Shown: positions 23,110 through 51,521 of the stretch, piece after piece
Position numbering within the stretch: position 1 is the first letter of the stretch
How the letters are laid out: each line of letters starts with the position of its first letter
Assembly: GCA_964479005.1 (NCBI GenBank)
Contig: CAYZJA010000001.1
Span: 192,001-256,000 of the forward strand
DNA: 64,000 nt
DNA from: an uncultured Candidatus Saccharibacteria bacterium
GTDB lineage: Bacteria > Patescibacteriota > Minisyncoccia > UBA6257
Direction: 5' to 3'
Notes under the pieces: model-generated
The model's input: only the letters and a program-made list of their open reading frames with translations
Told to the model about the DNA's origin: nothing
The model's database searches: none
Made by a program: the position numbers and the translations under genes

Positions 23110-24066
23110 ATGAAAAAGAACCAAAAACCAATCCCCTGTCATTTATCTGATTTTTTAGATTGGTTAGATATTGAAAAAGGTTTATCTTCTAAATCCCAGG
23201 AAAATTATAATAGATTTTTAAAAAAATTTTTAGATTGGTTAAAATCAAATAATTTAGAGGGTTTAAAGCCTCATGAATTAACTACTGATCATGTTTGGAA
23301 ATATCGGGTTTTCCTCTCGCGCCGATATCTTCCTAAAACGAAAACACCCCTTAAAAAAACAACTCAAAATTATTATTTAATAGCTTTAAGGTCCTTTTTG
23401 AATTATTTTGCTGATAGAGATATTTTGTCTTTACCATCTGAAAAGATAAAATTAGCTAAAGATAGAGATGAAAAACAAGTTAGTTTTTTAAATTTAGAGC
23501 AATTAGAGAAATTATTTTCAGCTCCTGACACTTCTAAAAAGCAAGAATTGCGGGACAGAGCTATTTTAGAGGTTTTATTCTCTACTGGTATGAGGATAGC
23601 AGAATTAGTTTCATTAAACCGGGATCAAATTAAAATAAATCCTGGAATAAAAGAATTAGAAGTTGGGATTATTGGCAAAGGGAAAAAACTACGAACTGTT
23701 TATTTCTCTGAAAGAGCTCTATCTTGGTTATCTAAATACTTTAAAACCCGAAATGATGATGAAAAAGCGTTATTTATCAATTATAGAAGCAGGAAAGGAG
23801 CGCCACGGAGATTAACTCCACGTTCAATTGAAAAAAATATGAAAAAATATGTGATTATGTCAGGGGTTCCAATAACAACTACTCCTCACGCCATGCGCCA
23901 TACTTTTTCGACAGATCTTTTAAATCAAGGCGTGGATTTAAAAATACTCCAGGAATTTCTTGGCCACAAAAGCATTGCCGCTACACAAATTTACGCGCAT
24001 GTTACGAGTAAAAAACTTCGTGAGGTACATCGGAAATTTCACAGTGGCCGTAAATTAAAAACATAA
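23110..24066 (+). CDS. tyrosine site-specific recombinase (XerC/XerD / phage integrase family)
   Basis: N-terminal SAM-like domain; catalytic region HAMRHTFSTDLL...LGHKSIAATQIYAHV (R-H-R-Y signature). Confidence 0.8.
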   Translation: MKKNQKPIPCHLSDFLDWLDIEKGLSSKSQENYNRFLKKFLDWLKSNNLEGLKPHELTTDHVWKYRVFLSRRYLPKTKTPLKKTTQNYYLIALRSFLNYFADRDILSLPSEKIKLAKDRDEKQVSFLNLEQLEKLFSAPDTSKKQELRDRAILEVLFSTGMRIAELVSLNRDQIKINPGIKELEVGIIGKGKKLRTVYFSERALSWLSKYFKTRNDDEKALFINYRSRKGAPRRLTPRSIEKNMKKYVIMSGVPITTTPHAMRHTFSTDLLNQGVDLKILQEFLGHKSIAATQIYAHVTSKKLREVHRKFHSGRKLKT

Positions 24067-24085
24067 GTAAAATAAATAAAATAAG

Positions 24086-24113
24086 GTAGAGGTTTGTTCC
24101 CCTACCTTATAAA
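24086..24113. terminator. bidirectional stem-loop between the convergent recombinase and small-gene operon
   Basis: AAGGTAGAGG-tttgtt-CCCCTACCTT. Confidence 0.5.
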
Positions 24114-24129
24114 TTCAGCTTCTATGTTT

Positions 24130-24336
24130 CTACATTTTATTTTCAATCAATCTTAGAATTCTTTTCCATTTCTCAAAATTCTTATTAATAACTTTTGAAA
24201 TTTTTTTCCAATCTTCAGGGGATGGCTCACGTATGCCCTTTTTTGGTTCCCCTAAAAAGATTTCCCCTGTTTTTGTATCACAAACAATATCATCTCCATT
24301 TTCTAATTTACCTATTTCTTCCCAATTAGCCATCAT
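24130..24336 (-). CDS. hypothetical small protein (68 aa)
   Basis: 11-nt overlap with the upstream gene suggests translational coupling. Confidence 0.35.
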   Translation of the reverse strand: MMANWEEIGKLENGDDIVCDTKTGEIFLGEPKKGIREPSPEDWKKISKVINKNFEKWKRILRLIENKM

Positions 24337-24649
24337 TTTTCACCTCTTCGATAATTTTATCAATCTTTAATCTATCATTAGGTACAAGATCTTTCATTTT
24401 GAGACCGAAAACCTCATTAATTACGCGAGTAAGGATGTTTTCTAGATTTTCATTTACTTTTTCCTCTAATTCTTTTATTTGTCTCAGTAGGCCGTCAATC
24501 TCGATGTCTTTATGGATGTTTTTAGCTTCCAGCTCAGACCATAGATTCTCAAAATAAGATTTAATGGCTATGTCTAGCAGGTCTTTTTGGGTATCTGATA
24601 GATAGTTACAATTCCAAATAAAATCAATAAGTTTTTCCCTGAGAGTCAT
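24326..24649 (-). CDS. hypothetical acidic coiled-coil protein (107 aa)
   Basis: ORF; operon with its neighbours. Confidence 0.35.
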   Translation of the reverse strand: MTLREKLIDFIWNCNYLSDTQKDLLDIAIKSYFENLWSELEAKNIHKDIEIDGLLRQIKELEEKVNENLENILTRVINEVFGLKMKDLVPNDRLKIDKIIEEVKNDG

Positions 24650-24701
24650 TTATTCACTCCTCCTTTTTTTATTTATTTCAGATTTTTGAATCTCAATCTA
24701 T

Positions 24702-24899
24702 CTAATAAATTTGTGTCTTTTCTTTATGTATACCATCAAGAATTGCTTTTATTCGCGGTTCTGATTTTTTATTGATGTACTTCCCTTGGTCTTTTATTTC
24801 TTTTTTGCTCATTTTCTTACCTTTTCCTCTTGTCCGCGGTCTTTTTAGAATATCAGCCGGACTAGAGCACAATGTTATTTGCTCTGATATTTTTGCCAT
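24702..24899 (-). CDS. hypothetical small basic protein (65 aa)
   Basis: Lys/Arg-rich; first gene of a three-gene minus-strand operon. Confidence 0.35.
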   Translation of the reverse strand: MAKISEQITLCSSPADILKRPRTRGKGKKMSKKEIKDQGKYINKKSEPRIKAILDGIHKEKTQIY

Positions 24900-25121
24900 T
24901 ACAATCCCCTCCTTCTATATATTTTTTATATTTTTATTATTATTCAGTTTTCAATCTGCAAGCTACACAGTCATGTAGCCTTATTATATCAATAATCATT
25001 AGACCTGTCAACCCAGCACTACCTATACATAGGTGCGTGGGGTATATGAAATTGAATAAATAAATGCTAATATAACTAACATTGCCCATTATTATTTGTT
25101 AATTGTTATTTGTTAATTTTT

Positions 25122-26303
25122 ATGAGAATAAGTTATTCCAGTTTAGAGAATTTTAAACAGTGTCCTCTAAAATATAAGTTTTCTAATATAGATAAAATAA
25201 AAGAGCCTAAAAGCAAAGAGGCTATTTTTGGCACTTATATTCATAAAGTTCTGAAATGGTTTTATCAAAAAGATCCACACTTCCCTACTCTTGATGCTTT
25301 ATTAAAGTATTATCGTGATTATTGGCCTAGAAAAACAGAAGGATTTGAATGGAAAGATCCTGAAGAAGAAAAATCTTATTTCAAAGAGGGGTTAAGAATA
25401 TTAGAAGAATTTTATAAGAAAAATATTCCACATAAAACATCTATTTTGGATTTAGAAACAAGGTTTGAAGTTGTTATTGATGAAAATCCTAATAAACCAA
25501 ATGGCAAGCATATTTTAACAGGCGTAATAGATAGAATAGATAAATTACCAGATGATACAATTGAAATAATTGATTATAAAACAGGAAAAAGAATGCCTTC
25601 TCAAAAAGCTTTAGATAAAAATGATCAACTTTCTCTTTACGCTATTGGATTAAAAAGCCGTTGGCCAAGAACTAAAATTGAAGATTTACGCCTAAGCTTA
25701 TATTTTCTTAAGTTCAATGAAAGAATAAATACCAAAAGAACAGAAAAAGACTTGGAAGAAGCAAAAGATAAAATAATAAATTTAATTCATCGAATAGAAA
25801 AAAGCGATTTTGAACCTCATTCTTCAGCATTATGTGGTTGGTGCGGTTATCGTAATATTTGTCCAATTTGGCGGCATTTTTATGAAGACGAGGAAAGCAA
25901 TCATTTAAATGATATAGATATTAAAGAAAAAATAGATAAATACTTTGTTTTAAAAAAAGAAAAAGAAAAATTAGAACAAGAATTATTAGAATTAAAGAAT
26001 TTAATTGATGTTTATTGTCATCAAAAAGGATTAAAGCGCGTATTTGGTGAAAATGGTTATTTTAGCCATACTGTTTATAACAAAGTTTCTTATGATATTC
26101 CTAAATTAAAAGAAATTTTAGAGCCATTGGAAAAATGGGAAGATATTATTGAAATTAATGCTAAAAAATTAAAAAAGGTTTTAAAAGAGATACCTGCTGA
26201 TTTGAGGGAAAAAATAAAAGAAACAGAAAAAATAGAAGAAAAATTTAAATACTTATCCACCAACCATATAAGCAAAAAAGAAATCAAAGAGCAACTGCCT
26301 TAG
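25122..26303 (+). CDS. PD-(D/E)XK nuclease family protein with a Cas4/AddB-like 4Fe-4S cysteine cluster
   Basis: N-terminal ISYSSLENFKQCPLKYKF; D...ExK core GVIDRIDKLPDDTIEIIDYKTGK; C-terminal CGWCGYRNIC. ATG at 25122 is preferred over TTG at 25110. Confidence 0.65.
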   Translation: MRISYSSLENFKQCPLKYKFSNIDKIKEPKSKEAIFGTYIHKVLKWFYQKDPHFPTLDALLKYYRDYWPRKTEGFEWKDPEEEKSYFKEGLRILEEFYKKNIPHKTSILDLETRFEVVIDENPNKPNGKHILTGVIDRIDKLPDDTIEIIDYKTGKRMPSQKALDKNDQLSLYAIGLKSRWPRTKIEDLRLSLYFLKFNERINTKRTEKDLEEAKDKIINLIHRIEKSDFEPHSSALCGWCGYRNICPIWRHFYEDEESNHLNDIDIKEKIDKYFVLKKEKEKLEQELLELKNLIDVYCHQKGLKRVFGENGYFSHTVYNKVSYDIPKLKEILEPLEKWEDIIEINAKKLKKVLKEIPADLREKIKETEKIEEKFKYLSTNHISKKEIKEQLP

Positions 26304-26668
26304 TTGCATCTAGTATTATAAATATATCCCCTATTTTCAGCTTCTTGTTGGGTTTTAAAATAGATTCGATTTTCTTCTTTTAATGAATTAGACAAACTAC
26401 AATCTACTGGATAATAATATTTTCCTCTGGAACTGGCTACAAATGAAAATTCTTTAGCTGTTATTGTAGTTTTATCTATTATAGGTTCATCAATGCTTGT
26501 TATTAATTCTTTTTCTATAATGATCGGTGGACGGGAGATAATATCAGCTCCAATAATAATACCAAGGGAAAAAGATAAAGTTATACTTAAAAATCCAAGG
26601 CTGAACAGCCAAAAATTCTTTTTGACAAATAGAACAAATTTTGTTAGAATTTTCAAACAGTGGGGCAT
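26300..26668 (-). CDS. membrane-anchored protein with a C-terminal Y-x4-C...RIYF...EA-x2-GY...C motif
   Basis: N-terminal TM; C-terminus GKYYYPVDCSLSNSLKEENRIYFKTQQEAENRGYIYNTRC. Confidence 0.4.
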   Translation of the reverse strand: MPHCLKILTKFVLFVKKNFWLFSLGFLSITLSFSLGIIIGADIISRPPIIIEKELITSIDEPIIDKTTITAKEFSFVASSRGKYYYPVDCSLSNSLKEENRIYFKTQQEAENRGYIYNTRCN

Positions 26669-26688
26669 AAAAATTTTAATTTTTAAAT

Positions 26689-26979
26689 ATGGCGCATGTT
26701 AAATCGGGTGGTTCAACAAAATTAGGAAGAGATTCAAGATCTAAAAGATTAGGAGTTAAAAGATTTGATGGTCAGATAGTAAAATCTGGCAATGTTTTAA
26801 TTAGGCAAAGAGGAACTAAGTGGCATCCTGGATTAAACACTAAGTTAGGTTGCGATGATACTATTTACGCTCTTATCAATGGAATAGTAAAATTTTCTAA
26901 TAGAAGAAAAAGAACTTTTACAGGCAAAACAAAAAGAATTAGTTTAGTAAATGTCATTCCTTCTGCTCAGAAACAATAG
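26689..26979 (+). CDS. rpmA: 50S ribosomal protein L27 (with a C-terminal basic extension)
   Basis: [48 protein letters not shown]. Confidence 0.9.
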
Positions 26980-27418
26980 CTTTAATTCTTACCTTCAAGG
27001 AGGTTTCTATTTTAGGATATAGAATTAGACGCACATCATAAAGTCCCTCTTTTTTGAGGGGTTTTTTTAATTCAATTTGGTTTTCTAATAAATGAATGCC
27101 TTGGGATTCTAATTCTTCAATAATTCTTTTGCTATTTACAGAGCTATAAGCTTCTTTTCCTTTTTCAGGGAATTTAAGCGGAATTTCTAAAATAATCTTT
27201 TTAAGACGGGTGGCTAGTTTAAGAGCTTGCTCTTTTTGTTTTTTATCAGTTTTTATCTTCTGTTCTTTTTTTTCTGAAACCTTTTTGATAATATCTGAGT
27301 CAGCTCTTTGGGCAATTTTTTGGGGAAAAAGATAATTTATAGCATAACCATCTGCTACATTTTTAATTTCTCCTTTATTGCCTAAACTTTGGACATCTTT
27401 TAAAAGATAAATTTTCAT
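26954..27418 (-). CDS. rplI: 50S ribosomal protein L9
   Basis: [36 protein letters not shown]. Confidence 0.85.
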
Positions 27419-27426
27419 AGGGATTA

Positions 27427-28686
27427 TTAATTAGTGGTTAGTAATTTTTGTAATTCTGCTATAGCTGTTTGTAATTGTTTGTCTTTTTCTAAATCTATTT
27501 TAGAAAAAGTGCCAAATTCTTCCTCGTTTTTAACTTCAATATCAGGAATAAGGCCATTATCTTCAATAATAGTTTCATTGGGGGTCAGCCATCGTGATAT
27601 AGTGATTTTAACGCTATTATTATCTTTTAAGGAAACTAATTCTTGTACAGATCCTTTGCCAAAGGTTTTCTCCCCAATTAATTTAACTCCCCTATTATCT
27701 CTTAAAGCGCCAGCTAATATTTCTGAAGCTGAAGCTGTGCCTTCGTTTATTAGAATAACTGTAGGAATCTCTTTAAGTAATGCTTGCCCAATTCTTACCC
27801 GAAAAATTTTTATTTCATCATTGCCAAAATCTTCTTTAAGAATAATATCTCCTTTTTCTAAGAACCAACCACTAATATTAACGACTGATTCTAAATATCC
27901 GCCTGGATTATTTCTAAGATCTATAATTAGTCCCTGTGGCCTGGTAAAAGCTATTTCCAAAGCTGTTTTATAGAAATTAAGGGTAAGAGGCTGGTTAAAA
28001 TTATAAATTTTCAGATAAGCAATATTATTATCTATTTTTTCCCATTTTACTGAAGGAATAGAAATCTTTTTTCTAATTAATTCTATCTTCTTTGTTTCAT
28101 CCCAGCTTGATCGATAAATAGTTAATATTACTTTTGTTCCTTCTGGCCCTCGTATTAGTTTAGCAGCTTCAAACGGAGATAAATCAATTGTTTCAGTTTC
28201 ATCTATTTTAATAATTTTATCGTTTGCCCTCAATCCAGCTTTTTCTGCCGGAGTATCTGAAAGAGGCGCTATGACTATCAAAAATCCATCGCGTCTTCCA
28301 ATTTCCATTCCTACACCATAGAATTCTCCGGATAATTCCTGAGAAAGATTCTCTGTTTGCTCAGAATCCAAAAATTCTGAATAAGGGTCTTTTAATGCGT
28401 TTATTATACCTCTGGTAGCGCCTAAGATTATTTTTTGGGCATCTAAATCATTTCTACCAACATATTTTTCTAAAATAACTTTCCATGTATCCCAAAAAAT
28501 ACTCATGTCAGTTTCTGTGATTTCCGCAGGTTTTTCTTTATTGATAATTTTTTCAAAAGGAGAAGGTAAATTAGCTTTCCAACCCCAATTTGCGCCTTGA
28601 GAAAAACCAAAAACCCATGCGCCTGCGAGGCAAATTATAATTAAAATTACTAAACAAGTTTTTCTATAATTGTTATTCTTTTTCAT
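27427..28686 (-). CDS. ctpA: S41-family carboxy-terminal processing peptidase
   Basis: N-terminal TM, PDZ segment, S41 catalytic region [13 protein letters not shown]...KGSVQ. Confidence 0.8.
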
Positions 28687-30073
28687 AACTTTTCAATAAA
28701 TTAATAAATTTAGGGGGCATATTCGCTATTTTCCCTGGACCAGCAAAAAGGAAAACATCACCATCTTTTTGAAATTTGAAAAGATTTTTCAAAAAAGATG
28801 ATTCATTTTTTACAAGATGTAATTTATTTTTACTTAGGGTTTTTGTTTTTAATATCTCTTTATATATTTTTTCGCTGTTAATCCTTTTAATAGGTTTTTC
28901 ATTAGATGAATCTAGTGGTAAAAGAAATAAAATGTCACAATTCTTTATTGCTCGAGCAAAGTCTTTATACAGAAGAAAAATCCGAGAATAACGATGAGGC
29001 TCTAAAATGAATATAATTCTTCTTTTTGGAAAAACAATTCTTGCCATTCTTAAAGTACCTTTTATTTCAGTAGGATGATGCGCATAATCATCAACTATTG
29101 CAATTTCTTTATTATATAGGATGGAAAATCTTCTTTTTATACCAGTAAAGGTTTTTAAATATTGCAAGGCATCTTTTAAAGGAACATTGAGAATTTGTGA
29201 AGCAGAAATAGCGCCTAAAGCATTATAGATATTTTCTTTTCCAGGCAAAGAGAGTTCTAATCTTCCTTGAAATTTATTATTTATGAATAAATCCGAAAAA
29301 GTTTTTATTCCTTTATAATCAATATTTTTGACAAAAAGATCGGCTTTATTGTCTATCCCAAAAGTTAAAGATTTTCTTTTCTTTTGTTTTGCTATTTTTC
29401 TTAAAAAAGAATCATCATTATTTAAAACAATAAATCCAGACTGATTATTTTGAGAAAAATCTTCAAAAGCTTTTTTCAATAAAGAAAATTGTCCTTTGTA
29501 AGGACCATTAATATCTAAATGATCCTTATCAACATTAGTAATTACACAAAGAAAAAACGGAGTTTTTAAAAACGATTTATCGTGCTCATCTGTTTCCAAA
29601 ACAGAATATTCTCCTATCCCCCATTTACTTCCCAATGGATATGTTTTATTTTTAGCCCCTAAATAAACCGTTGGTTTTAATTTTGCTTTTTCTAAAATAT
29701 GGGCAATCATTGCTACAGTAGTACTTTTTCCATGAGTTCCTGCAATGCTAATAATCTTTTTTTCAGTCAGAATATCCATCAGAAAATCAAAACGATTCGA
29801 TAAAGGAACATTCATCTTTTGGGCTGTTTTAAGCTCAATGTTATTGACAGGAATTGCAGAAGAATAAATTACAATTTCTGCTTTTTTTATATTATCAGCC
29901 TTATGACCAATATATATCTTTGCTCCTTTTTTTTCTAAAATTCTTCTTGCTGCAAAATCATTTTTATCAGAGCCTGATAATGAATATCCTTTTTCTAATA
30001 AGAGATTGGCTAAAGCGGTCATTCCTACTCCTCCAATGCCGATTAAATGAATTTGCTTTTTCTTTATAGCCAT
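28673..30073 (-). CDS. murC: UDP-N-acetylmuramate--L-alanine ligase
   Basis: IHLIGIGGVGMTALANLL, GTHGKSTT (Mur ligase P-loop). Confidence 0.85.
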   Translation of the reverse strand: MAIKKKQIHLIGIGGVGMTALANLLLEKGYSLSGSDKNDFAARRILEKKGAKIYIGHKADNIKKAEIVIYSSAIPVNNIELKTAQKMNVPLSNRFDFLMDILTEKKIISIAGTHGKSTTVAMIAHILEKAKLKPTVYLGAKNKTYPLGSKWGIGEYSVLETDEHDKSFLKTPFFLCVITNVDKDHLDINGPYKGQFSLLKKAFEDFSQNNQSGFIVLNNDDSFLRKIAKQKKRKSLTFGIDNKADLFVKNIDYKGIKTFSDLFINNKFQGRLELSLPGKENIYNALGAISASQILNVPLKDALQYLKTFTGIKRRFSILYNKEIAIVDDYAHHPTEIKGTLRMARIVFPKRRIIFILEPHRYSRIFLLYKDFARAIKNCDILFLLPLDSSNEKPIKRINSEKIYKEILKTKTLSKNKLHLVKNESSFLKNLFKFQKDGDVFLFAGPGKIANMPPKFINLLKSYEKE

Positions 30074-30084
30074 TTAGTAATTAT

Positions 30085-30112
30085 ATAGTTTAAACACTGT
30101 TTTTGTCAATTT
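30085..30112 (-). promoter_or_regulatory. candidate murC promoter (minus strand TTGACA-16-TATATAAT)
   Basis: Reverse complement of 30085-30112 reads TTGACAAAAACAGTGTTTAAACTATATAAT. Confidence 0.45.
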
Positions 30113-30114
30113 TA

Positions 30115-30185
30115 CCCCCACATCATAATGAGCACCGAGTGCTTTGCACTAACTAAACAGAGTATGTGCTCGTTTGGTGTGGGGG
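30115..30185. other. 71-nt GC-rich nested palindromic element (CCCCCACA...TGTGGGGG enclosing GAGCAC...GTGCTC and GTGC-ttt-GCAC); candidate structured RNA or operator
   Basis: Three nested inverted repeats in an otherwise AT-rich divergent intergenic region between murC and thpR. Confidence 0.4.
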
Positions 30186-30232
30186 TTTAACAGCTGGAAA
30201 TTACAGTAAAAATAAGATAAAATACAAGGTAT

Positions 30233-30790
30233 ATGGGACATCGTATATTTATTGCTTCACATTTACCAAATGATGTTAAGAAAATCTTTTTAGATTATCA
30301 ACAAAAGAAACTCCACAATTTTGGTTTTCGGCTTATACCTGAGCAGGCCTTACATTTAACATTGGTCTTTATTGGATATGTTAGTAATGATAATATATTG
30401 AAAATTAATAAAGCTTGTCAAAATATTGCTTCCTTGTTCTTTCCAATAGAGGTTAAATTAAATAAAATAACTTATGGTCCAAATCCACACTCCCCTCGCC
30501 TAATTTGGGCAGAAGGCGAAATTTCAAAGAATTTAGACAAACTTCATAAAGCATTAGAAAATGAATTAATGGACCAGGGAATAAATTTTAAAATAGAAAA
30601 TCGTTTATTCAAACCCCATGTTACTTTAGCGCGCTTCCAAAATGAAACAAAACCACCACGTCTATCAGAACTGGAAGAAAAAATTAATAAATCTTTTGTA
30701 ATTAATTCCATATCTATTATAGAGAGCGAATTAAGTCGTTCAGGACCACAATATACGGATTTAGCCACATATACATTAAATTTTAAATAA
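30233..30790 (+). CDS. thpR: RNA 2',3'-cyclic phosphodiesterase / 2'-5' RNA ligase (2H phosphoesterase, LigT/ThpR)
   Basis: Two H-x-T-x motifs: HLTLVFIG and HVTLARF. Confidence 0.75.
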   Translation: MGHRIFIASHLPNDVKKIFLDYQQKKLHNFGFRLIPEQALHLTLVFIGYVSNDNILKINKACQNIASLFFPIEVKLNKITYGPNPHSPRLIWAEGEISKNLDKLHKALENELMDQGINFKIENRLFKPHVTLARFQNETKPPRLSELEEKINKSFVINSISIIESELSRSGPQYTDLATYTLNFK

Positions 30791-31626
30791 TGTTTATTAT
30801 TAACGTAATTCCATTGACTAATATTCCAAGGCCTCAACCACAAATTTTTTCTTATTTTTATAAGTCGGATTTAATAAAAGGATCTATTGTTGAAATACCT
30901 TTAAGACGCAGGAATGTAATGGCAATAGTGTTGAATTCAGCGTCTGTGTCTTCAAAAAAAGCAACCTTAAAAAAGGCTGATTTTGTTTTAAAACCAATAA
31001 ATAAAGTTATCTCTTCAAGGCAGATAGTTCCACCATTATTTTTTTCTTTAGCAGATTTTATCTCTCGTTATTATTTTTATCCAATTTCGTTGTGTTTGAA
31101 AATTATTTTACCACGTCGCATGAAATCTTTAATAAATTATGTAGAAAAACTAGAAAAAGATTTTCCAAAATATTTTGATCCATCAGTTTCAAAGACAAAA
31201 AAAGATAAAATAGAAAAAATAGGTTCCTACAATTTTTCTGATGTTATTAAAAAAATAAAGGCAAATCTTAAAAACAAAAAACAGGTGTTAATTCTCGTTC
31301 CAACTATTTTCTATCAAAATTATTATTTTACTAAATTATCATCTAAAATCTCTATACCAATTTTTATTTCCTCAAATGATTTAAAAATTAAAGAATTTAA
31401 TTCTTTATGGACAAAAATTAATTCTCAGGAAGCGCAATTAATTATAGGACGGCGTTCTTCTCTGTTTCTGCCATGGCAAAATTTAGGACTTATAATTGTA
31501 GTGGATGGAAGCAATAATTCTTATAAATCGTGGAATCAAAAACCTTATTATAACGCCGCTTTTCTTATTAACTATTTAGCTTTGTATTATAATACTTCAA
31601 TTATTTACTATAATGCCTGTTATTAA
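30790..31626 (+). CDS. priA: primosomal protein N' (PriA) N-terminal part: 3'BD/WH plus a degenerate helicase lobe 1
   Basis: Aligns to E. coli PriA up to motif II, but Walker A GSGKT is replaced by GSYNF and DEEH by VDGS; QVLILVP and LIIGRRSSLFLP are conserved. Confidence 0.6.
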   Translation: MFIINVIPLTNIPRPQPQIFSYFYKSDLIKGSIVEIPLRRRNVMAIVLNSASVSSKKATLKKADFVLKPINKVISSRQIVPPLFFSLADFISRYYFYPISLCLKIILPRRMKSLINYVEKLEKDFPKYFDPSVSKTKKDKIEKIGSYNFSDVIKKIKANLKNKKQVLILVPTIFYQNYYFTKLSSKISIPIFISSNDLKIKEFNSLWTKINSQEAQLIIGRRSSLFLPWQNLGLIIVVDGSNNSYKSWNQKPYYNAAFLINYLALYYNTSIIYYNACY

Positions 31627-32710
31627 AATTATTGATCTAAAAAAGGTTAGAAAAGAGAAAAAACTATTTCAGGCTATTTCTCCTGATGCTTTTATTGAAA
31701 TTCAAAAAGCCCTAAAAAAAAGAAAAAGGATTATTATTTTTATTAACAGAAGGGGGTTAGCAACAAGCATTATATGCCAGGAATGTGGTTTTGTATTTAA
31801 ATGCCCAAATTGTGATATCCCCTTGGGGTTTCATAATAAATCTAAGCTTATTTGTCATCATTGTAATTATAATGTTTCTATACCACCAGTTTGTCCTTCT
31901 TGCAGGGGCTATAAGCTTAAAGCTTTGGGAATTGGTATTGAGAGAATTGCTGAAGAAATTAAAAAATTTATTATTCCAACGCCTATTTTTATGTTAATCG
32001 AAGGGGAAACTTCTGATGAACAAAAATCAGATATTTTCGATAAATTTAATCGAGGAGATATTAAAATATTAATAGGGACTGAAGCTCTTTTAAACCCTCA
32101 ATTAAAAGCTGCCCATTTAGTAATAGTGGCTTCTGTTGATCCTGCGCTTTTCTTACCAGATTATTATAGCGAGGAAAGAGTGTTTTTAAACCTTTTAAAA
32201 CTAAAAGCTTTGTCTAAAGAAAGATTAATAATACAGACATTAATTCCTGAGAATAAATTATTCCAATATCTTATAAAAAACGAAGGAAAAAAATTTCTAC
32301 AAGAAGAAAAAAGATGGCGAAAAGATTATCTTTGGCCTCCCTATGTTCAATTAATAAAATTGACACTTTCTGACAAAGATCAAAAAAAGGGGGTGAAAGA
32401 AGCTGAAGAAACAAAAAGAAATTTAGAGCAAGCCATAAATAAGTTAATTCCAGAAAACCATCAAAAAGATTTTATTATTTTAGGACCTGCGCAAGCCTTT
32501 GTTTTTAAAGAAAAAAGCTTTTATAAATGGAATATTTTGGTAAAATATAAGTACTTTGAAAGTAAAATTAAAGAAGAGATTAACTCTTTGTTAGGACTCA
32601 ATTTACTTTCACCTGTTTTAACTAAAAAAGAATTAATGCTCAGAAATAAAATTTTAAAATACGTTCCTTTAAACTGGAAAATTGATGTTGATCCAATAAA
32701 TATATTGTAA
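31613..32710 (+). CDS. priA: PriA C-terminal part: Cys-rich zinc-binding region, helicase lobe 2 and CTD; separate frame with a 14-nt overlap
   Basis: IIIFINRRGLAT, CQECGFVFKCPNCD...CHHCNY...CPSC (CRR zinc fingers), ILIGTEALL; motif VI is degenerate (KLKALSKERL). Confidence 0.65.
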   Translation: MPVIKIIDLKKVRKEKKLFQAISPDAFIEIQKALKKRKRIIIFINRRGLATSIICQECGFVFKCPNCDIPLGFHNKSKLICHHCNYNVSIPPVCPSCRGYKLKALGIGIERIAEEIKKFIIPTPIFMLIEGETSDEQKSDIFDKFNRGDIKILIGTEALLNPQLKAAHLVIVASVDPALFLPDYYSEERVFLNLLKLKALSKERLIIQTLIPENKLFQYLIKNEGKKFLQEEKRWRKDYLWPPYVQLIKLTLSDKDQKKGVKEAEETKRNLEQAINKLIPENHQKDFIILGPAQAFVFKEKSFYKWNILVKYKYFESKIKEEINSLLGLNLLSPVLTKKELMLRNKILKYVPLNWKIDVDPINIL

Positions 32711-32753
32711 GAACCTGCTTTACAGAACCTTGTTTTTCATTTCATTCAAAATA

Positions 32754-33224
32754 ATGGAAATACTTACTGGAGAAAATAATAAAACCTTAAGACAAAAAAG
32801 CCTTCCTGTGAAGCATATTAACACAAATGTGCGTAGTTTGATTGAACAGATGAAAGATGTGGTAAGACAAAATAATGGAGTAGGATTAGCGGCAATTCAG
32901 ATAGGAGAACCTACTCGCATTATTATTTGTGAAATAGACGATAAGTTTTATACTTTTATTAATCCTGAAATCATAAAGTTTTTTCCAGAAACTTCAGTAA
33001 TGGAAGAAGGCTGTTTAAGCTTGCCAAATATTTATGGTGAGGTAGAAAGACCAAAAAAAATATCTCTAAAAGCCATTAATTTTGACGGCAAAAAGATAAA
33101 AATGAAAGCTTTTGGTTTATTAGCGAGAGTAATTCAACATGAATTAGATCATCTTGATGGTGTGCTCTTTATTGATAAAGCAAAAAATATAACAAAACAA
33201 ATACGAAAAACAGCAGCTCTATAA
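32754..33224 (+). CDS. def: peptide deformylase
   Basis: GVGLAAIQIG, EGCLSLP, HELDHLDG. Confidence 0.85.
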   Translation: MEILTGENNKTLRQKSLPVKHINTNVRSLIEQMKDVVRQNNGVGLAAIQIGEPTRIIICEIDDKFYTFINPEIIKFFPETSVMEEGCLSLPNIYGEVERPKKISLKAINFDGKKIKMKAFGLLARVIQHELDHLDGVLFIDKAKNITKQIRKTAAL

Positions 33225-33228
33225 AATT

Positions 33229-34167
33229 ATGCGCTTTATATTCTTTGGTTCATCTAAATTTGCAGAAATAATACTTAATAAACTTCTTAAATCTGATATG
33301 AAGCCAGTTTTAGTAGTAACTACTCCACCCAAACCAAAAGGGAGGAAAAAAATTCTTTCCCCTACCCCTGTTTATAATTTAGCTAAACAAAATAATATCC
33401 CTGTACTTACACCAGAAAAATTAGAAGACGAAGAGTTTTTATCAACTTTTAAAGATTATAATCCGGACTTAGTGATTCTTACTGCTTATGGAAAGATTAT
33501 TCCTTCAAAATTGCTATCAATTCCCAAAAAAGGAGTTCTGAATCTTCATCCGTCCCTCCTCCCCAAATGGCGCGGAGCTACTCCTATTCAATCAACTATT
33601 TTAGCAGGTGATAATGAAACAGGCGTTACCTTATTTTTAATGGATGAAGAAATAGATCACGGACCAATAATACAAGATGCAAAATACAAGATACAAGATA
33701 CAAGAATCATTTATCCGGAGTTAAGTAAAGAATTGGCAGAATTAGGAGTAGATCTTATAATCAAAACTGTACCACTGTGGTTTGAAGGAAAAATTAAACC
33801 AATGCCGCAAAATCATTCTTTAACAAGTTATTGCCATAAAATTTTACCTAAAGATGAAAAAATAAATTGGGAAAAATCATCTATAGAAATAGATAGAAAA
33901 GTAAGAGCTTTAAATCCTAAACCAGGCGTTTTTACCATAGCGAATGATATAATTATCAAGATAGTTAAAGGTTATCCAATAGATGATCCAACTCTTTATA
34001 CTGATAAGCCAGTGGGTTCTATTTTTCAATTTCAAGATAAATTGGCAGTTAAATGTGGCAAAGGGATTTATATCATTGAAGAATTAAAACCAGCAGGAAA
34101 AAACACGATGAATAGCGAAAGTTTCTTAAGGGGTAATAAATGGATATTAGAGATTAAATTATTATAA
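33229..34167 (+). CDS. fmt: methionyl-tRNA formyltransferase
   Basis: MRFIFFGSS...; formyltransferase core NLHPSLLPKWRGATPIQ. Confidence 0.85.
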   Translation: MRFIFFGSSKFAEIILNKLLKSDMKPVLVVTTPPKPKGRKKILSPTPVYNLAKQNNIPVLTPEKLEDEEFLSTFKDYNPDLVILTAYGKIIPSKLLSIPKKGVLNLHPSLLPKWRGATPIQSTILAGDNETGVTLFLMDEEIDHGPIIQDAKYKIQDTRIIYPELSKELAELGVDLIIKTVPLWFEGKIKPMPQNHSLTSYCHKILPKDEKINWEKSSIEIDRKVRALNPKPGVFTIANDIIIKIVKGYPIDDPTLYTDKPVGSIFQFQDKLAVKCGKGIYIIEELKPAGKNTMNSESFLRGNKWILEIKLL

Positions 34168-35189
34168 TGCTTTTATTCTTTAAAAAATATGGTCATATAA
34201 TTTTAAGCCTTTTTTTGCTTATTATTTTTGGGTTTTTTGTCAGTAATGGGCTAATAGAAAAAAAATATTTGACTTCATCGTTAATCCAACCAAATGCGGA
34301 AATAATTATTGATTCCTTTGATAAATCAAATTTAGAGCATTTAAATATTGAAATTCCGCAACATATTAATCTAACTAATTTTTATAGAACATATGGACAG
34401 AGAATGTTAGGTAATGAAAATATAAAAATAATCAGCAGAGAGGAATGGGGCGCTGATAATCGTTATTCTGATCCTCAATTCATAGAAGATTTCTGTCAGA
34501 AAAATTATTGCTATGAAGATAGATATAATCCTGAAGATACGTTTTCTGAAAAAGAATATTGGAGATCTCTTGAATTATTAATTAATTACAACCAAAATTT
34601 TAAATCATACGATAATTTTTTTCTCCAGAGCCTAAAAAAAGAAAATGGTTTTGTCTATTATTATCTGCCGGTAGAGGAAATTGTTGTTCATCATACTGCC
34701 GGAAAATTTACTACAAATTTTGAAGAATCAAAAAAAGAATTGCGAAAAATTCATCTTATGACAGCTGCTCAAAGAAAATGGAGGGATATTGGATATCATT
34801 ATTTAATAGATGGTAATGGCAGGATTTACGAAGGAAGTTTGGGAGGAAAATATTCAGTCGGAATTCATGCTTATGGGCATAACAAAGGAACAGTGTCTAT
34901 TTCTTTAATGGGTGATTTTCGCCCTGACCATGATAAATTAACTAAGGCAATGGAAAAAGCCTTTATTAATCTTGTTGAATATTTGATTACTGAATATGAA
35001 TTAGATATTAACCAAGAAGAATTTTATCTTCGAAAGCCAAACTTATCTGGTCGGGAAATGAACAAAAATATCATAAAAGGACATATGGAATTGGATATTA
35101 GAGAAGAACCGACAGAATGTCCTGGAATAGACCCAGAATATCTCAGAGGATTAATCTATCCTTCTTTAAAAACTTCTGCGCTATATTGA
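34167..35189 (+). CDS. membrane-anchored N-acetylmuramoyl-L-alanine amidase (Amidase_2/PGRP domain)
   Basis: VVHHTAG, GYHYLIDGNGRIYEG, IKGHMEL...CPG. Confidence 0.7.
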   Translation: MLLFFKKYGHIILSLFLLIIFGFFVSNGLIEKKYLTSSLIQPNAEIIIDSFDKSNLEHLNIEIPQHINLTNFYRTYGQRMLGNENIKIISREEWGADNRYSDPQFIEDFCQKNYCYEDRYNPEDTFSEKEYWRSLELLINYNQNFKSYDNFFLQSLKKENGFVYYYLPVEEIVVHHTAGKFTTNFEESKKELRKIHLMTAAQRKWRDIGYHYLIDGNGRIYEGSLGGKYSVGIHAYGHNKGTVSISLMGDFRPDHDKLTKAMEKAFINLVEYLITEYELDINQEEFYLRKPNLSGREMNKNIIKGHMELDIREEPTECPGIDPEYLRGLIYPSLKTSALY

Positions 35190-45284: not shown

Positions 45285-45293
45285 TAAAAAATA

Positions 45294-45322
45294 AAAGGGA
45301 GGTTGGTTCCTCCCTTTTTTTA
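45294..45322. terminator. bidirectional intrinsic terminator GGGAGG-ttggtt-CCTCCC plus T7
   Basis: AAAAGGGAGGTTGGTTCCTCCCTTTTTTT. Confidence 0.65.
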
Positions 45323-45337
45323 ATTTGTTTCAACTCT

Positions 45338-45502
45338 TTAACTAAAGTTTGCGATTAGATTTGCAAAAAATATTATAGTGCAGACAACAACACAAAAAAT
45401 AAAGTATTGTTGAAAGAGATCTTCATGTCTTGGAAGTAGTACCAATATAATACCTATTGCCGCCATTGCTAAACATGTTATTTCTATAATATTCACAATC
45501 AT
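45338..45502 (-). CDS. small hydrophobic peptide (54 aa, 2 TM)
   Basis: Unlisted ORF MIVNIIEITCLAMAAIGIILVLLPRHEDLFQQYFIFCVVVCTIIFFANLIANFS; SD GGCGGTG. Confidence 0.4.
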   Translation of the reverse strand: MIVNIIEITCLAMAAIGIILVLLPRHEDLFQQYFIFCVVVCTIIFFANLIANFS

Positions 45503-45509
45503 CACCGCC

Positions 45510-45635
45510 TTATTTCCTTTTATTATTAAATAATCTTAAAAGAAGTGGAACGATTATAAATATTCCAATCGCATAGCAAGACATCCTAAACACAGCTTCA
45601 CCAGAAGTTAATTCTCCCATATCTTTCACCTCCAT
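45510..45635 (-). CDS. small hydrophobic peptide (41 aa, 1 TM)
   Basis: MEVKDMGELTSGEAVFRMSCYAIGIFIIVPLLLRLFNNKRK; its start overlaps the stop of the upstream peptide by 10 nt. Confidence 0.35.
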   Translation of the reverse strand: MEVKDMGELTSGEAVFRMSCYAIGIFIIVPLLLRLFNNKRK

Positions 45636-45727
45636 CTAATCTTCGCCCCGCCTGCAAGTAATGTCATTATAATAAAAAGTACTATCTTTTTTATTCCTAT
45701 CCAAACCACATTAAAAATCTTTTTCAT
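45626..45727 (-). CDS. small hydrophobic peptide (33 aa, 1 TM)
   Basis: MKKIFNVVWIGIKKIVLFIIMTLLAGGAKIRWR with a strong SD GAAAGGAGG. Confidence 0.4.
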   Translation of the reverse strand: MKKIFNVVWIGIKKIVLFIIMTLLAGGAKIRWR

Positions 45728-45768
45728 TTTCAGTCCTCCTTTCAGATTTTTCTATTTTCTCCTTTTTT

Positions 45769-46026
45769 CTACCATTTTGTCCACCTTTTTTTAATCAATC
45801 CAAACATTCCAATAATCAATCCCGAAATAAGTAAAGTTATAAAAACTTTTAGGCTAGTGGCAAAAAAGAATAATATAAAGATTGTAATTAATACAATTAA
45901 TATAATTTCGTTGCTTTTTACTCTTTTTTGATCTGCCACTATATCCATTACTGATTTACTTCTCAATTTATTCTTATCGCCTAAGTCGCTAAATGAAATT
46001 AAATTTTGCCATTTTATTCTTTTCAT
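45769..46026 (-). CDS. small membrane protein (85 aa, 2 TM)
   Basis: ORF; hydrophobic core IILIVLITIFILFFFATSLKVFITLLISGLIIGMFGLI. Confidence 0.45.
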   Translation of the reverse strand: MKRIKWQNLISFSDLGDKNKLRSKSVMDIVADQKRVKSNEIILIVLITIFILFFFATSLKVFITLLISGLIIGMFGLIKKRWTKW

Positions 46027-46032
46027 TTCTTC

Positions 46033-46392
46033 TCACTCTCCTTTTTTCTTTATTTTTATTTTTTCATCAATAGCTTTTCTTAAATGAGGTCTTATTATTT
46101 TATAGACATTATCCAAATCTAAACTATCAATTTTCACTATTTTTATATTGGAACAAAATTGTAGCGAAAATAAGTCTTTTACCTCTAACCAACCAGATGT
46201 CCTGGGACCATTTCTTGGTCCAAGCTCTTCTGTTTTACCCCTTTTACGATAAAGATAAGAAATTAAATCACAATTAAACAAATATGGAATCTGGCTATCT
46301 GTGTCAAGCTCAATTACAATAAGATTACAGACCATGCGCTTTCCATTCAATTTTCCATTGAATCGAATTACCCAATAAAATTTCATCATTTC
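46033..46392 (-). CDS. hypothetical soluble protein (about 119 aa), first gene of the small-peptide operon
   Basis: The ATG after SD GAAGGAG gives MMKFYWVIRFNGKLNGKR...; the ORF track extends it to 46425. Confidence 0.4.
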   Translation of the reverse strand, partial: EMMKFYWVIRFNGKLNGKRMVCNLIVIELDTDSQIPYLFNCDLISYLYRKRGKTEELGPRNGPRTSGWLEVKDLFSLQFCSNIKIVKIDSLDLDNVYKIIRPHLRKAIDEKIKIKKKGE

Positions 46393-46448
46393 TTTCTCCT
46401 TCTTTTTTTTATTTTTAATTGTCAAAGGACTGACGTTCTACCATCCTA

Positions 46449-46477
46449 ATTATATAACATTATATAATTTAAGTCAA
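46449..46477 (-). promoter_or_regulatory. minus-strand promoter TTGACT-17-TATAAT for the small-peptide operon
   Basis: Reverse complement: TTGACTtaaattatataatgttaTATAAT. Confidence 0.5.
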
Positions 46478-46546
46478 TATTATATGAAACCATAAAAAAT
46501 GGCCAAATAATGACCATTTTTTAATATTTTATATCTCTAATAAAAT

Positions 46547-46810
46547 CTACGCGCTTGCTTTTTCAATAATAGCATCAGGTTCTTCAATTATTGTACCAAA
46601 GTCATCTTTTTTTGTTTCAACTATTTCACCGTCTAAATCAATTTTAGCAATATCATGATCATCAAATTCAATTCCTTTGTCTTCCATCCATGCTTTAAAT
46701 TCTTCATCATCTGGCTCGCCACCACTATGCTCTAACCATTCTTTCTTTGTTATTTTTGGAATCCCTTTTTTTTCGGGATTAGGAGTTGGAATATTTTCAA
46801 TACTACCCAT
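46547..46810 (-). CDS. hypothetical acidic protein (87 aa)
   Basis: ORF only. Confidence 0.3.
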   Translation of the reverse strand: MGSIENIPTPNPEKKGIPKITKKEWLEHSGGEPDDEEFKAWMEDKGIEFDDHDIAKIDLDGEIVETKKDDFGTIIEEPDAIIEKASA

Positions 46811-46891: not shown

Positions 46892-47443
46892 TTAATGGTC
46901 AATATGAAAGTTGCCTTTATTTTGTTGCGCTTTCCCATATCCTTTTGATATAAATCGTACTCTTTTTTCTCTAATATCTATTATTTGATATTTAAAATAA
47001 AACCCTATTCCTCCTATTGTCTCACAATAAATCTTTAAAATTCCCCCGTTTAGTTCCTTTGGATTTTCTATTTCATCATTAGGTTTTTTTACAATTTCTA
47101 TAGACAATTCCTCTTGTAAACCAATCTGATGATTTTGATATTTTACGATTTTAAAATTATCGCTCTCAATATATGTATTTAAAGCAACATCATTACCTTC
47201 ATTACGAATCTGTAAAAAATAATCAGAATCAGCAATTAAATAACCATTCTCTTTAATCTTTTCTTGTTTATTCTTGGAGTATTCTTTTATACTTTTAATA
47301 TCTAAAATTAAGACGGGTTCTCGCCTTTTGTTTTTAATAAAACGAATTGATAATAAAGAAATAATAATTGGCGCCATAAATTGTATGAATTGTACTAATC
47401 CAGGATTTTGGCTAAACCAATCTTTAATTCCCTCAATATACAT
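46892..47443 (-). CDS. hypothetical membrane-anchored protein (183 aa)
   Basis: N-terminal TM. Confidence 0.3.
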   Translation of the reverse strand: MYIEGIKDWFSQNPGLVQFIQFMAPIIISLLSIRFIKNKRREPVLILDIKSIKEYSKNKQEKIKENGYLIADSDYFLQIRNEGNDVALNTYIESDNFKIVKYQNHQIGLQEELSIEIVKKPNDEIENPKELNGGILKIYCETIGGIGFYFKYQIIDIREKRVRFISKGYGKAQQNKGNFHIDH

Positions 47444-50543: not shown

Positions 50544-50990
50544 TTATGGAAATATCCAATTGAGCAATTTGGTTTCTATCTTTTCCCGTAGCACAATGTT
50601 TTGAATTTTACCTATCAGCGAATTTTGAGAAAAAATGCATCCGTCAATCCTGGTTGCCTGACAAATAATTGCTCTCATCGGCTGTCTATAAATCTCCTTT
50701 GGATGTAAAAATTGATAATCGGATAATTTTATTATTTCATTTACTTTATCCTCGTAAAGCTTAGTTTTAGATAAGGGAATAGCAAATGCCATACTCTGAG
50801 ACCAAAAAGATTGATCCAGCCAAAGTATAATCGGTCTTGGTTTACCAATAACATTGCTCACTGTGTTATTTTGTCCGCAATAAGGACAAGAATAATTTGT
50901 AATAGAAAAATCCCTGCAACAGCGCGGATTAGAACATTTAATTGTTTCCGGAAATCTAGATATATAAATAATATCCCATTTGTGAAACAT
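50544..50990 (-). CDS. MazF/PemK-like toxin-fold protein with a 4-Cys zinc-ribbon insertion
   Basis: WDIIYISRFPE...[CSNPRCC...CPYC]...GKPRPIILW...AFAIPLSKT follows the MazF/PemK consensus, with a C-x4-CC...C-x2-C insert after strand 1. Confidence 0.5.
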   Translation of the reverse strand: MFHKWDIIYISRFPETIKCSNPRCCRDFSITNYSCPYCGQNNTVSNVIGKPRPIILWLDQSFWSQSMAFAIPLSKTKLYEDKVNEIIKLSDYQFLHPKEIYRQPMRAIICQATRIDGCIFSQNSLIGKIQNIVLREKIETKLLNWIFP

Positions 50991-50993
50991 ATT

Positions 50994-51521
50994 TTAAAAT
51001 GGCAAATCTTCTTTTTCTTCCGGCTCTGATTCCGTTTTTTTTGCAACATCCAAAATATCGTCCCTTTTTGATTCTTGAACAATTGGAAGTTTATAAACTA
51101 TATCAAGCAAATTTTGAAGACTAAGATTACCAAATGAATCAACGACTTCATCAATTATTAATAATTTTTCAGGGCCGAGCGATTTTAATAACTGTTCTTT
51201 TATAGAAACTTCCTTTTTTAAATAATATCTGGTATAGGATTTAGTTTCCTTTCTAGTTAAAGGAAACTTCTTTATTTCAATATACCCAATGTTAGAAAGA
51301 TGATTAGTATAATTGTCTAATTCTACTGTAAACGGGCCGTGTAAATATTTTTTGTATTCCATCACGGTAATTTTTTCTTTTAATCTCCGCATTGCTAAAA
51401 TATCACTCAAAAAAAGTAATTTTTGAAGATGGGTTTTACCGAGAATACCATCTAATCTTGAAATCAAATAAAAAACCACTGCGAGAGTATCTTTATCTAA
51501 CTTAGCTTCGCTTTTGACCAT
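50994..51521 (-). CDS. Panacea-domain (DUF4065, SocA-like) putative antitoxin
   Basis: HLQKLLFLSDILAMRRLKEKITVMEYKKYLHGPFTVEL matches the Panacea core; 4 nt upstream of the MazF-like gene. Confidence 0.55.
   Translation of the reverse strand: MVKSEAKLDKDTLAVVFYLISRLDGILGKTHLQKLLFLSDILAMRRLKEKITVMEYKKYLHGPFTVELDNYTNHLSNIGYIEIKKFPLTRKETKSYTRYYLKKEVSIKEQLLKSLGPEKLLIIDEVVDSFGNLSLQNLLDIVYKLPIVQESKRDDILDVAKKTESEPEEKEDLPF

Follow-up and report, generated by a model that had tools for sequence, protein, structure and literature searches.

Do the five very short open reading frames (ORFs) that follow one another on the minus strand at 45338-46477 of a 64,000-nucleotide (nt) stretch of a candidate-phyla-radiation genome from an uncultured ultra-small bacterium (Patescibacteria; contig CAYZJA010000001.1, positions 192,001 to 256,000; hereafter the window) encode proteins, and what would these proteins do together? 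The original prediction described an operon of five small proteins, four of them tiny transmembrane (TM) peptides, behind a strong promoter. All five ORFs, here called A to E in the order of transcription, are present between promoter and terminator, are conserved, and are real coding sequences under purifying selection. We propose, with about even confidence, that the five products make up a lineage-specific and self-contained complex of small proteins in the cytoplasmic membrane, in which B and C form the core, D and E are exchangeable subunits and the basic protein A is peripheral, with amounts coupled from a strong constitutive promoter. The following features, with protein lengths in amino acids (aa), were identified between the upstream hairpin and the terminator common to this unit and murD:

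46493..46522, minus strand, hairpin terminator of the upstream 87-aa gene and 5' boundary of the unit (13-bp stem followed by a U-run, -14.2 kcal/mol)
46449..46477, minus strand, sigma-70-type promoter TTGACT-17-TATAAT (consensus score 11/12)
46419..46434, minus strand, conserved 5'-leader motif GTCAGTCCTTTGACAA (GTCA/TGAC inverted repeat; UCCUUU complementary to the Shine-Dalgarno sequence AAAGGA)
46033..46389, minus strand, cistron A, 118 aa (117 aa from the second ATG, 46386), predicted soluble, net charge +9
45769..46026, minus strand, cistron B, 85 aa, invariant core subunit (ORF and hydropathy)
45626..45727, minus strand, cistron C, 33 aa, cationic amphipathic or hydrophobic helix, second core subunit, C-terminal G-G-x-K-x-(S/R)-W-R
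45510..45620, minus strand, cistron D, 36 aa from ATG 45620, facultative subunit, single TM segment, KKR-type C-tail
45338..45496, minus strand, cistron E, 52 aa from GTG 45496, facultative subunit, 2-TM hairpin
45293..45318, bidirectional intrinsic terminator, common to the unit and the convergent murD (10-bp stem with 5 GC pairs, T-runs on both strands, -15.4 kcal/mol)

The NCBI annotation includes A and B and lacks C, D and E, in agreement with the original prediction that three peptides had been missed by the ORF track. Being short and inconsistently called by gene callers as well, C, D and E might be non-coding chance ORFs in the 3' untranslated region of an A-B operon. Over the 390 nt of the C-E stretch, 99% lay under three same-strand ORFs of at least 30 aa, compared with a mean of 25% in dinucleotide shuffles, and 0 of 5000 shuffles reached this packing. 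Relatives were collected as the contigs of eight A clusters, five GTDB genomes recovered via a murD scan, and four contexts found via B homologues. Frame and length were kept for all five ORFs in about 17 related loci (L numbers below) of one Paceibacterota clade, with lengths of 112-154, 79-98, 26-40, 34-44 and 51-58 aa for A, B, C, D and E, respectively, so that the small ORFs passed the check for lack of conservation that had been named as refuting them. Mean ratios of nonsynonymous to synonymous differences (pN/pS) in protein-guided codon alignments were 0.33, 0.41, 0.55, 0.52 and 0.47 for A, B, C, D and E, respectively, all below 1, and dN/dS, the corresponding ratio of substitution rates, was 0.15-0.37 for the three small peptides in closely related pairs. 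The shuffles, the retention of frame and length at 25-79% aa identity, and the pN/pS of 0.47-0.55, to which a conserved start geometry and fusions to B can be added, effectively rule out chance ORFs, an explanation that we consider extremely improbable. Three well-supported unannotated small genes are thereby gained for a candidate-phyla-radiation genome, and five orphan protein families, confined to one Paceibacterota clade, are defined.

Homologues of A formed eight clusters with 68-100% identity among 5.8 billion sequences, and an exhaustive HMMER profile search of 1.84 billion representatives returned nine A relatives. B had eighty homologue clusters of 57-118 aa, none of which (0/80) carried a Pfam match or a name. 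The E profile search yielded 22 clusters, each of 51-58 aa except one of 36 aa. In the alignments, C was represented by 17 versions and E by 14, and D homologues occurred in 11 loci in two allelic classes. A pattern scan of the GTDB representatives for A gave no match; the A relatives there were only about 50% identical and were recovered via the murD scan, the broader A alignment being too divergent for pattern scanning. The metagenome scan gave two loci only, both already in the set. The closest GTDB murD relatives were Patescibacteria metagenome-assembled genomes labelled Paceibacterota, Minisyncoccia or Parcubacteria. Many such genomes with murD 79-87% identical are titled 'uncultured Candidatus Saccharibacteria', and these look like generic or mislabelled submitter names.

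The cistrons are joined through their Shine-Dalgarno sequences (SDs). The last codons of A, AAA GGA GAG TGA, are the SD of B, and the last codons of C, TGG AGG TGA (W-R-stop), are the SD of D. In nine relatives, TGGAGGT(G/A)A of C is followed 5-7 nt on by the ATG of D, and the conserved GGAGGTGA-N5-7-ATG places the D start at an ATG 7-8 nt past GGAGG. By this geometry D most likely starts at the second ATG, 45620, and has 36 aa; the alternative start at 45635 (ORF 45510..45635) gives the 41 aa of the original prediction. With the D start at 45620, the start/stop overlap reported at 45626-45635 is probably not used, and the stop of C would lie within the SD-to-start spacer of D. The SD of E, AAGGCGGTGA, straddles the stop of D, the TAA of which falls inside AATAAGGCGGTGA. 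In the relatives E starts with an ATG 8 nt past GGCGG, and at the equivalent position the window has GTG 45496, which gives 52 aa, with ATG 45502 (54 aa, the length first given) and GTG 45505 (55 aa, ORF 45338..45505) as alternatives. The SDs that had been predicted for the chain were found in the end of the preceding cistron for B, D and E, and 4-nt ATGA overlaps at B/C, C/D and D/E were frequent in the relatives. Because the SDs lie within the terminal codons of the preceding cistron, the cistrons appear to be chained for termination-reinitiation, and this SD and stop geometry points to translational coupling. As the SD is embedded in the end codons, part of the C-terminal conservation (WR of C, KGE of A) would serve both the protein and an RNA signal. 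The locus is a clear example of cistrons chained via SDs in the last codons of the preceding gene.

The five cistrons form one minus-strand transcription unit between the upstream hairpin at about 46493-46522, which was kept in 8 of 10 aligned loci, and the bidirectional terminator. The strong promoter claimed earlier was borne out by its score and by its recurrence: TTGAC(T/C)-17-TATAAT was found 5' of the operon in 10 related loci, no matter whether A or B was the first gene. In the leader, CTTTGA(T/C)AA was unchanged in all 10 aligned sequences and was also seen in L016 and L020 before an extra 62-aa first cistron (p62). The promoter and the leader (GTCAG)TYCTTTGAYAA are kept whatever the first gene. 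The element GTCAGTCCTTTGACAA could be an operator or a translational control element, in which UCCUUU can pair with the SD of the first cistron. This pairing recurs, with a weak predicted energy of -4 to -7 kcal/mol, about 1-2 standard deviations below shuffles. The Rfam scan of the region found no RNA family at threshold. The G+C content of the window is about 30%. Type I toxin-antitoxin modules consist of one small hydrophobic toxin gene that is repressed by an antisense small RNA, encoded in overlap with it or next to it, and whose translation initiation is poorly accessible. A module of this type, one of the candidates of the original prediction, is disfavoured on account of the five cistrons, the consensus promoter, the strong exposed SDs and the lack of an Rfam small RNA at threshold, a scan that covers known small RNAs only.

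The soluble A protein, predicted at about 119 aa, has 118 aa and carries the motifs RFNGxLNG, ELGPKNGxxTxGWLEV and KIKIKxKGE. The 85-aa B protein begins with a basic stretch of about 40 aa, continues with a tight 2-TM hairpin (hydrophobic residues 36-79) and ends in a basic C-tail, KKRWTKW. Topology was assigned from hydropathy and the positive-inside rule, by which both ends of B are predicted to be cytoplasmic. Members of the C family have 26-40 aa, a net charge of +3 to +8, a hydrophobic moment of 0.37-0.89, a conserved Trp near the C-terminus, and no leader. The C of the window carries an insertion that creates a hydrophobic run of TM length, which only some versions have. Of the four TM peptides originally described, B, D and E were thus recovered as such, and C belongs to a family of cationic amphipathic helices. 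In 14 aligned versions of E the loop Glu was invariant and an Asn of the second TM segment (TM2) nearly so.

No known family was recognised. For A to E and the upstream 87-, 183- and 201-aa proteins, searches in Pfam, PHROGs, PADLOC defence models and NCBIfam gave nothing above noise, and member-wise scans of the A, B and E alignments gave noise only. C had no Pfam or NCBIfam match at E <= 0.1. No component matched PDB sequences, PDB folds or viral folds, and A and B had no relatives on IMG/VR viral contigs. Two candidates were rejected. PRA1 matched weakly in 8 of 12 B members (best E 0.007; 16 bits for the B of the window against a cut-off of 30.1), and the match was confined to the hydrophobic hairpin and was therefore treated as compositional. 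Matches of an A profile to haemagglutinin HA2 among PDB sequences were chance matches (E > 0.1).

Which of these products belong together was read from the gene content of the relatives. In every context examined the operon lies in the same slot, convergent to murD-trxB, and wherever the slot could be read through, B and C are found together, with L009 and L015 as anomalous exceptions. The other cistrons, A, D, E and p62, are facultative: the order is A-B-C in L005-7, A-B-C-E in L011 and in L021/L102, B-C-D-E in L017, B-C-D in L098, and p62-A-B-C-D-E in L104, and D is absent from L005-7, L011, L018 and L021/L102. In L022 the whole operon is replaced by a YunG-family gene (1279-1653; PF24585, E 4e-33), which stands in the place of A-E between the 87-aa gene and murD, and the slot thus behaves as a variable insertion site. 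B and C are fused in frame in three sequence backgrounds (P0022, P0076, and P0072, the last on 15 contigs), and P0078 joins B to the loop and TM2 of E. Such fusions in nature are the strongest evidence so far that the products act together in the membrane, and the B-C fusions would place C on the side of the cytoplasmic tail of B.

In the proposed complex, the five cistrons would be constitutively and strongly expressed, and coupling would deliver their products in near-stoichiometric amounts. B would form a 2-TM hairpin with both basic tails in the cytoplasm, and C would lie as a cationic amphipathic helix at the cytoplasmic face beside the C-tail of B. D, a predicted single-pass protein with its N-terminus out and its C-terminus in, and E, a predicted hairpin with a short acidic outward loop, would be exchangeable accessory TM subunits, and A, a presumed basic cytoplasmic alpha/beta protein, would dock peripherally. 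As a guess, the complex is oligomeric, forms or gates a small pore or organises the membrane, and is not a secreted toxin. Topology, by hydropathy and the positive-inside rule, as well as physical assembly and function, are what we infer here. Among the roles listed in the original prediction, that of accessory subunits of a membrane complex fits best, given the coupling, the B-C core, and the B-C and B-E fusions. The format of a small-membrane-protein operon is familiar (PMC12648545); what is unusual is that only small proteins are encoded, with SD-in-terminal-codon chaining, fusions and allele shuffling.

The peptides could instead be accessory or regulatory small subunits of a larger conserved membrane machine that is encoded elsewhere, in the manner of CydX (cytochrome bd), KdpF and AcrZ (reviewed in PMC12648545). 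Many characterised bacterial small membrane proteins act in this way (PMC12648545), D and E are dispensable, variable and modulator-like, and the operon is predicted to be strongly and constitutively expressed. The likeness extends to size (30-55 aa), one or two helices, frequent lack of annotation, co-transcription and coupling with partners, and helix-helix contacts in the membrane. CydX, KdpF and AcrZ, however, have a known large enzyme or transporter as their partner, which they bind or whose operon they share, whereas small proteins only are found here, with no shared family: no large membrane protein gene was present in the unit in any locus, no partner complex was adjacent in any of the about 17 loci, and the constant neighbour murD is convergent, so that only the terminator is common. 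No known small-subunit family was matched in Pfam or NCBIfam, and five coupled cistrons with internal fusions suggest mutual partnering. We consider modulators of a larger machine unlikely.

The evolution of the operon bears on its function in another way. In the close clade the flanking genes are 79-89% (murD) and 79-90% (trxB) identical to the window and p183, the upstream 183-aa protein, 73-87%, compared with 25-81% for A-E, and the rank order of the loci reverses between genes. Identity to the window is 81%, 42% and 41% for A, D and E of L003; 53% and 79% for A and E of L016; 52% and 79% for A and E of L018; and 79%, 40% and 55% for D, E and B of L017, respectively. C, D and E each occur in two or three deep allelic classes, found in most combinations. 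Three contigs from different samples are 99.9% identical across A and B and then split sharply at about the fifth codon of C (divergence points at about 2093 in L008, 1890 in L009 and 970 in L010, with L009 running on into unrelated sequence). As judged from the contigs, this abrupt divergence in C shows recombination within the operon, although assembly breaks at strain-variable sites may contribute to the sharp ends; the split of L008, L009 and L010 would be either strain-level cassette replacement or an assembly break at a variable site. In L015 (606-1484) only about 29 residues of B are intact; the sequence beyond them is unrelated, and its genes run the other way, which appears to be a rearrangement or a chimeric contig.

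Several points weigh against a self-contained membrane complex. Allele reassortment with identity rank reversals is a pattern seen more typically in conflict or recognition loci than in housekeeping complexes. None of the proteins has a homologue that would tie it to a function, and gene fusions suggest association without proving it. Since the operon can do without A, D and E, there is no conserved machine of fixed stoichiometry. Translation, membrane insertion and assembly of the A-E products are predicted from sequence. Given the mosaic pattern, antagonism with immunity and pore formation were kept as candidates.

Were the operon a cassette for antagonism and immunity, its membrane-active component would be C, an amphipathic cationic peptide with Trp and no leader, and B, D and E would provide for self-protection or export. 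The size, charge, amphipathicity, Trp and lack of a leader of C are listed properties of leaderless bacteriocins, some of which are sets of several peptides of about 30 aa (PMC6131525); for C this agreement is one of physico-chemistry only. Like aureocin A70, enterocin L50, and lacticin Q with lnqBCDEF (PMC6131525), the locus has adjacent genes for peptides of about 30-50 aa, one of them resembling a leaderless cationic Trp peptide (C), together with small hydrophobic co-encoded membrane proteins and allelic polymorphism; the divergent C, D and E classes reassort, and the three nearly identical contigs part sharply at the start of C, a polymorphism typical of toxin/immunity loci. Unlike those loci, it has no ATP-binding cassette (ABC) transporter or other exporter and no family match, begins with a soluble 118-aa protein, and occupies a fixed chromosomal slot in a reduced genome, being vertically syntenic and not plasmid-borne. 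No ABC transporter or C39 peptidase was found within about 8 kb on each side in Pfam scans of the larger ORFs, nor in the related loci; the Pfam content of this region comprises TrxB, QueA, Tgt, MurD, Xth, RNase T, an M48 peptidase and a Panacea domain. C did not match known leaderless families, e.g., aureocin A53/lacticin Q, enterocin L50 or LsbB (Pfam/NCBIfam, E <= 0.1), nor was any other bacteriocin family matched. The embedded SD of D accounts, at least in part, for the conserved WR end of C, and the in-frame fusion of C to the cytoplasmic C-tail of B in three lineages, which tethers C to a membrane protein, argues against a free extracellular antibacterial peptide. We regard such a cassette as quite unlikely, and the bacteriocin/immunity proposal of the original prediction is disfavoured.

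Double-glycine-leader class II bacteriocins have an N-terminal leader of about 15-30 aa ending in GG, followed by the mature peptide. This type is disfavoured as well: the GG of C lies 5-6 residues from the C-terminus, the GG of type-a D follows only 3-4 residues (M-I-E-G-G), and there is no C39 exporter.

The same mosaic would also fit a new kind of membrane cassette, polymorphic and recombining, with which these episymbiotic ultra-small bacteria engage in conflict or recognition. The B-C core would then act as a minimal pore-former or as a membrane-active effector, with D and E as modulators or immunity subunits that are specific to alleles and can replace one another. Balancing selection would maintain the divergent allelic classes, and recombination at a fixed hotspot next to murD would reshuffle them. 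This is speculative, and we give it little probability. If the mosaic does reflect balancing selection, the locus could be a handle on competition or recognition in uncultured episymbionts, which is nearly uncharted; if it does not, the operon would add another lineage-restricted group to the hypothetical membrane proteins.

Class II holins and pinholins have two TM helices and a highly charged C-tail and act with antiholins. B has the holin format, with two TM helices, a basic, charged C-tail and a length of 80-90 aa, within the 65-95 aa of that format, and its small co-encoded membrane partners could modulate it. In a holin/antiholin-like or small-toxin module, B or C would be kept in check by the other peptides until a trigger, e.g., phage infection or stress, led it to permeabilise the cell's own membrane. 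The variable content and the evolution of A-E, faster than that of the flanks (25-81% versus 79-90% for murD and trxB), are as in defence islands, and a Panacea-domain antitoxin gene lies 5 kb away. Unlike in class II holins, however, the cytoplasmic N-domain of B is long and conserved. No holin or defence family was matched at E <= 0.1 in Pfam and PHROGs, or in PADLOC, there were no endolysin, spanin or prophage genes or relatives on viral contigs, and the neighbours are the housekeeping genes murD, trxB, queA, tgt and xth and uncharacterised genes that carry no lysin domain, with no phage or plasmid genes. A near-consensus constitutive promoter with strong SDs would be hazardous for a lethal effector, and all members are under ordinary purifying selection. 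We consider such a module very unlikely, and the holin-antiholin set of the original prediction is likewise disfavoured.

In TatA/TatE-type proteins a TM segment is followed by an amphipathic helix, an architecture of oligomerising membrane-weakening proteins. The B-C fusions resemble them in that a TM segment is directly followed by a predicted cationic amphipathic helix at the cytoplasmic face. They differ in that B has two TM helices and an N-terminal domain and no TatC-like gene is nearby, and no Pfam family, TatA-type included, matched C at E <= 0.1 or any B-family member at E <= 1.

Several observations concern the neighbourhood of the operon. Seven lineages have the p62 cistron (60-65 aa, motif GDNFLIVIPATPGYASI..LIDxFGKL, no Pfam match) between the same leader and A; the window lacks it. 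Its copies lie at 30-218 in L004, 1214-1411 in L008, 620-805 in L014, 27-215 in L015, 6567-6755 in L016, 6483-6671 in L020 and 3413-3601 in L104. Upstream of the operon, two orphan genes on the minus strand, at 46547-46810 and 46892-47443, are conserved in the same order in most loci. The upstream 87-aa protein is very acidic (net charge -14), and p183 has an N-terminal TM anchor and, at 73-87% identity in the closer relatives, is more conserved than A-E. L017, L098 and L100 lack both the acidic 87-aa protein and the basic A, and 12 other loci have both, a hint that the two may work as a pair.

Directly 5' of the operon promoter, three loci carry a gene for a stand-alone GGDEF diguanylate cyclase with a coiled coil (6776-7333 in L020, with PF00990 at E 1.7e-39; 6565-7167 in L021; 2841-3443 in L102), which is absent from the window. 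L021 and L102 are the two most divergent loci. A link of the operon to cyclic diguanylate (c-di-GMP) is possible from this position.

The Panacea-domain protein (SocA-like antitoxin, PF13274, E 6.9e-12) is encoded at 50994-51521 on the minus strand, and a 148-aa orphan ORF (50544-50990, minus strand) lies 3 nt 3' of it; the two may form a PanA-type toxin-antitoxin pair. Over the whole window, the cumulative GC skew peaks near 24 kb, and the genes lie mostly on the plus strand at 1-24 kb and mostly on the minus strand at 35-64 kb, and so converge. A skew peak together with this switch of orientation (about 24000-35000) is as expected at a replication terminus.

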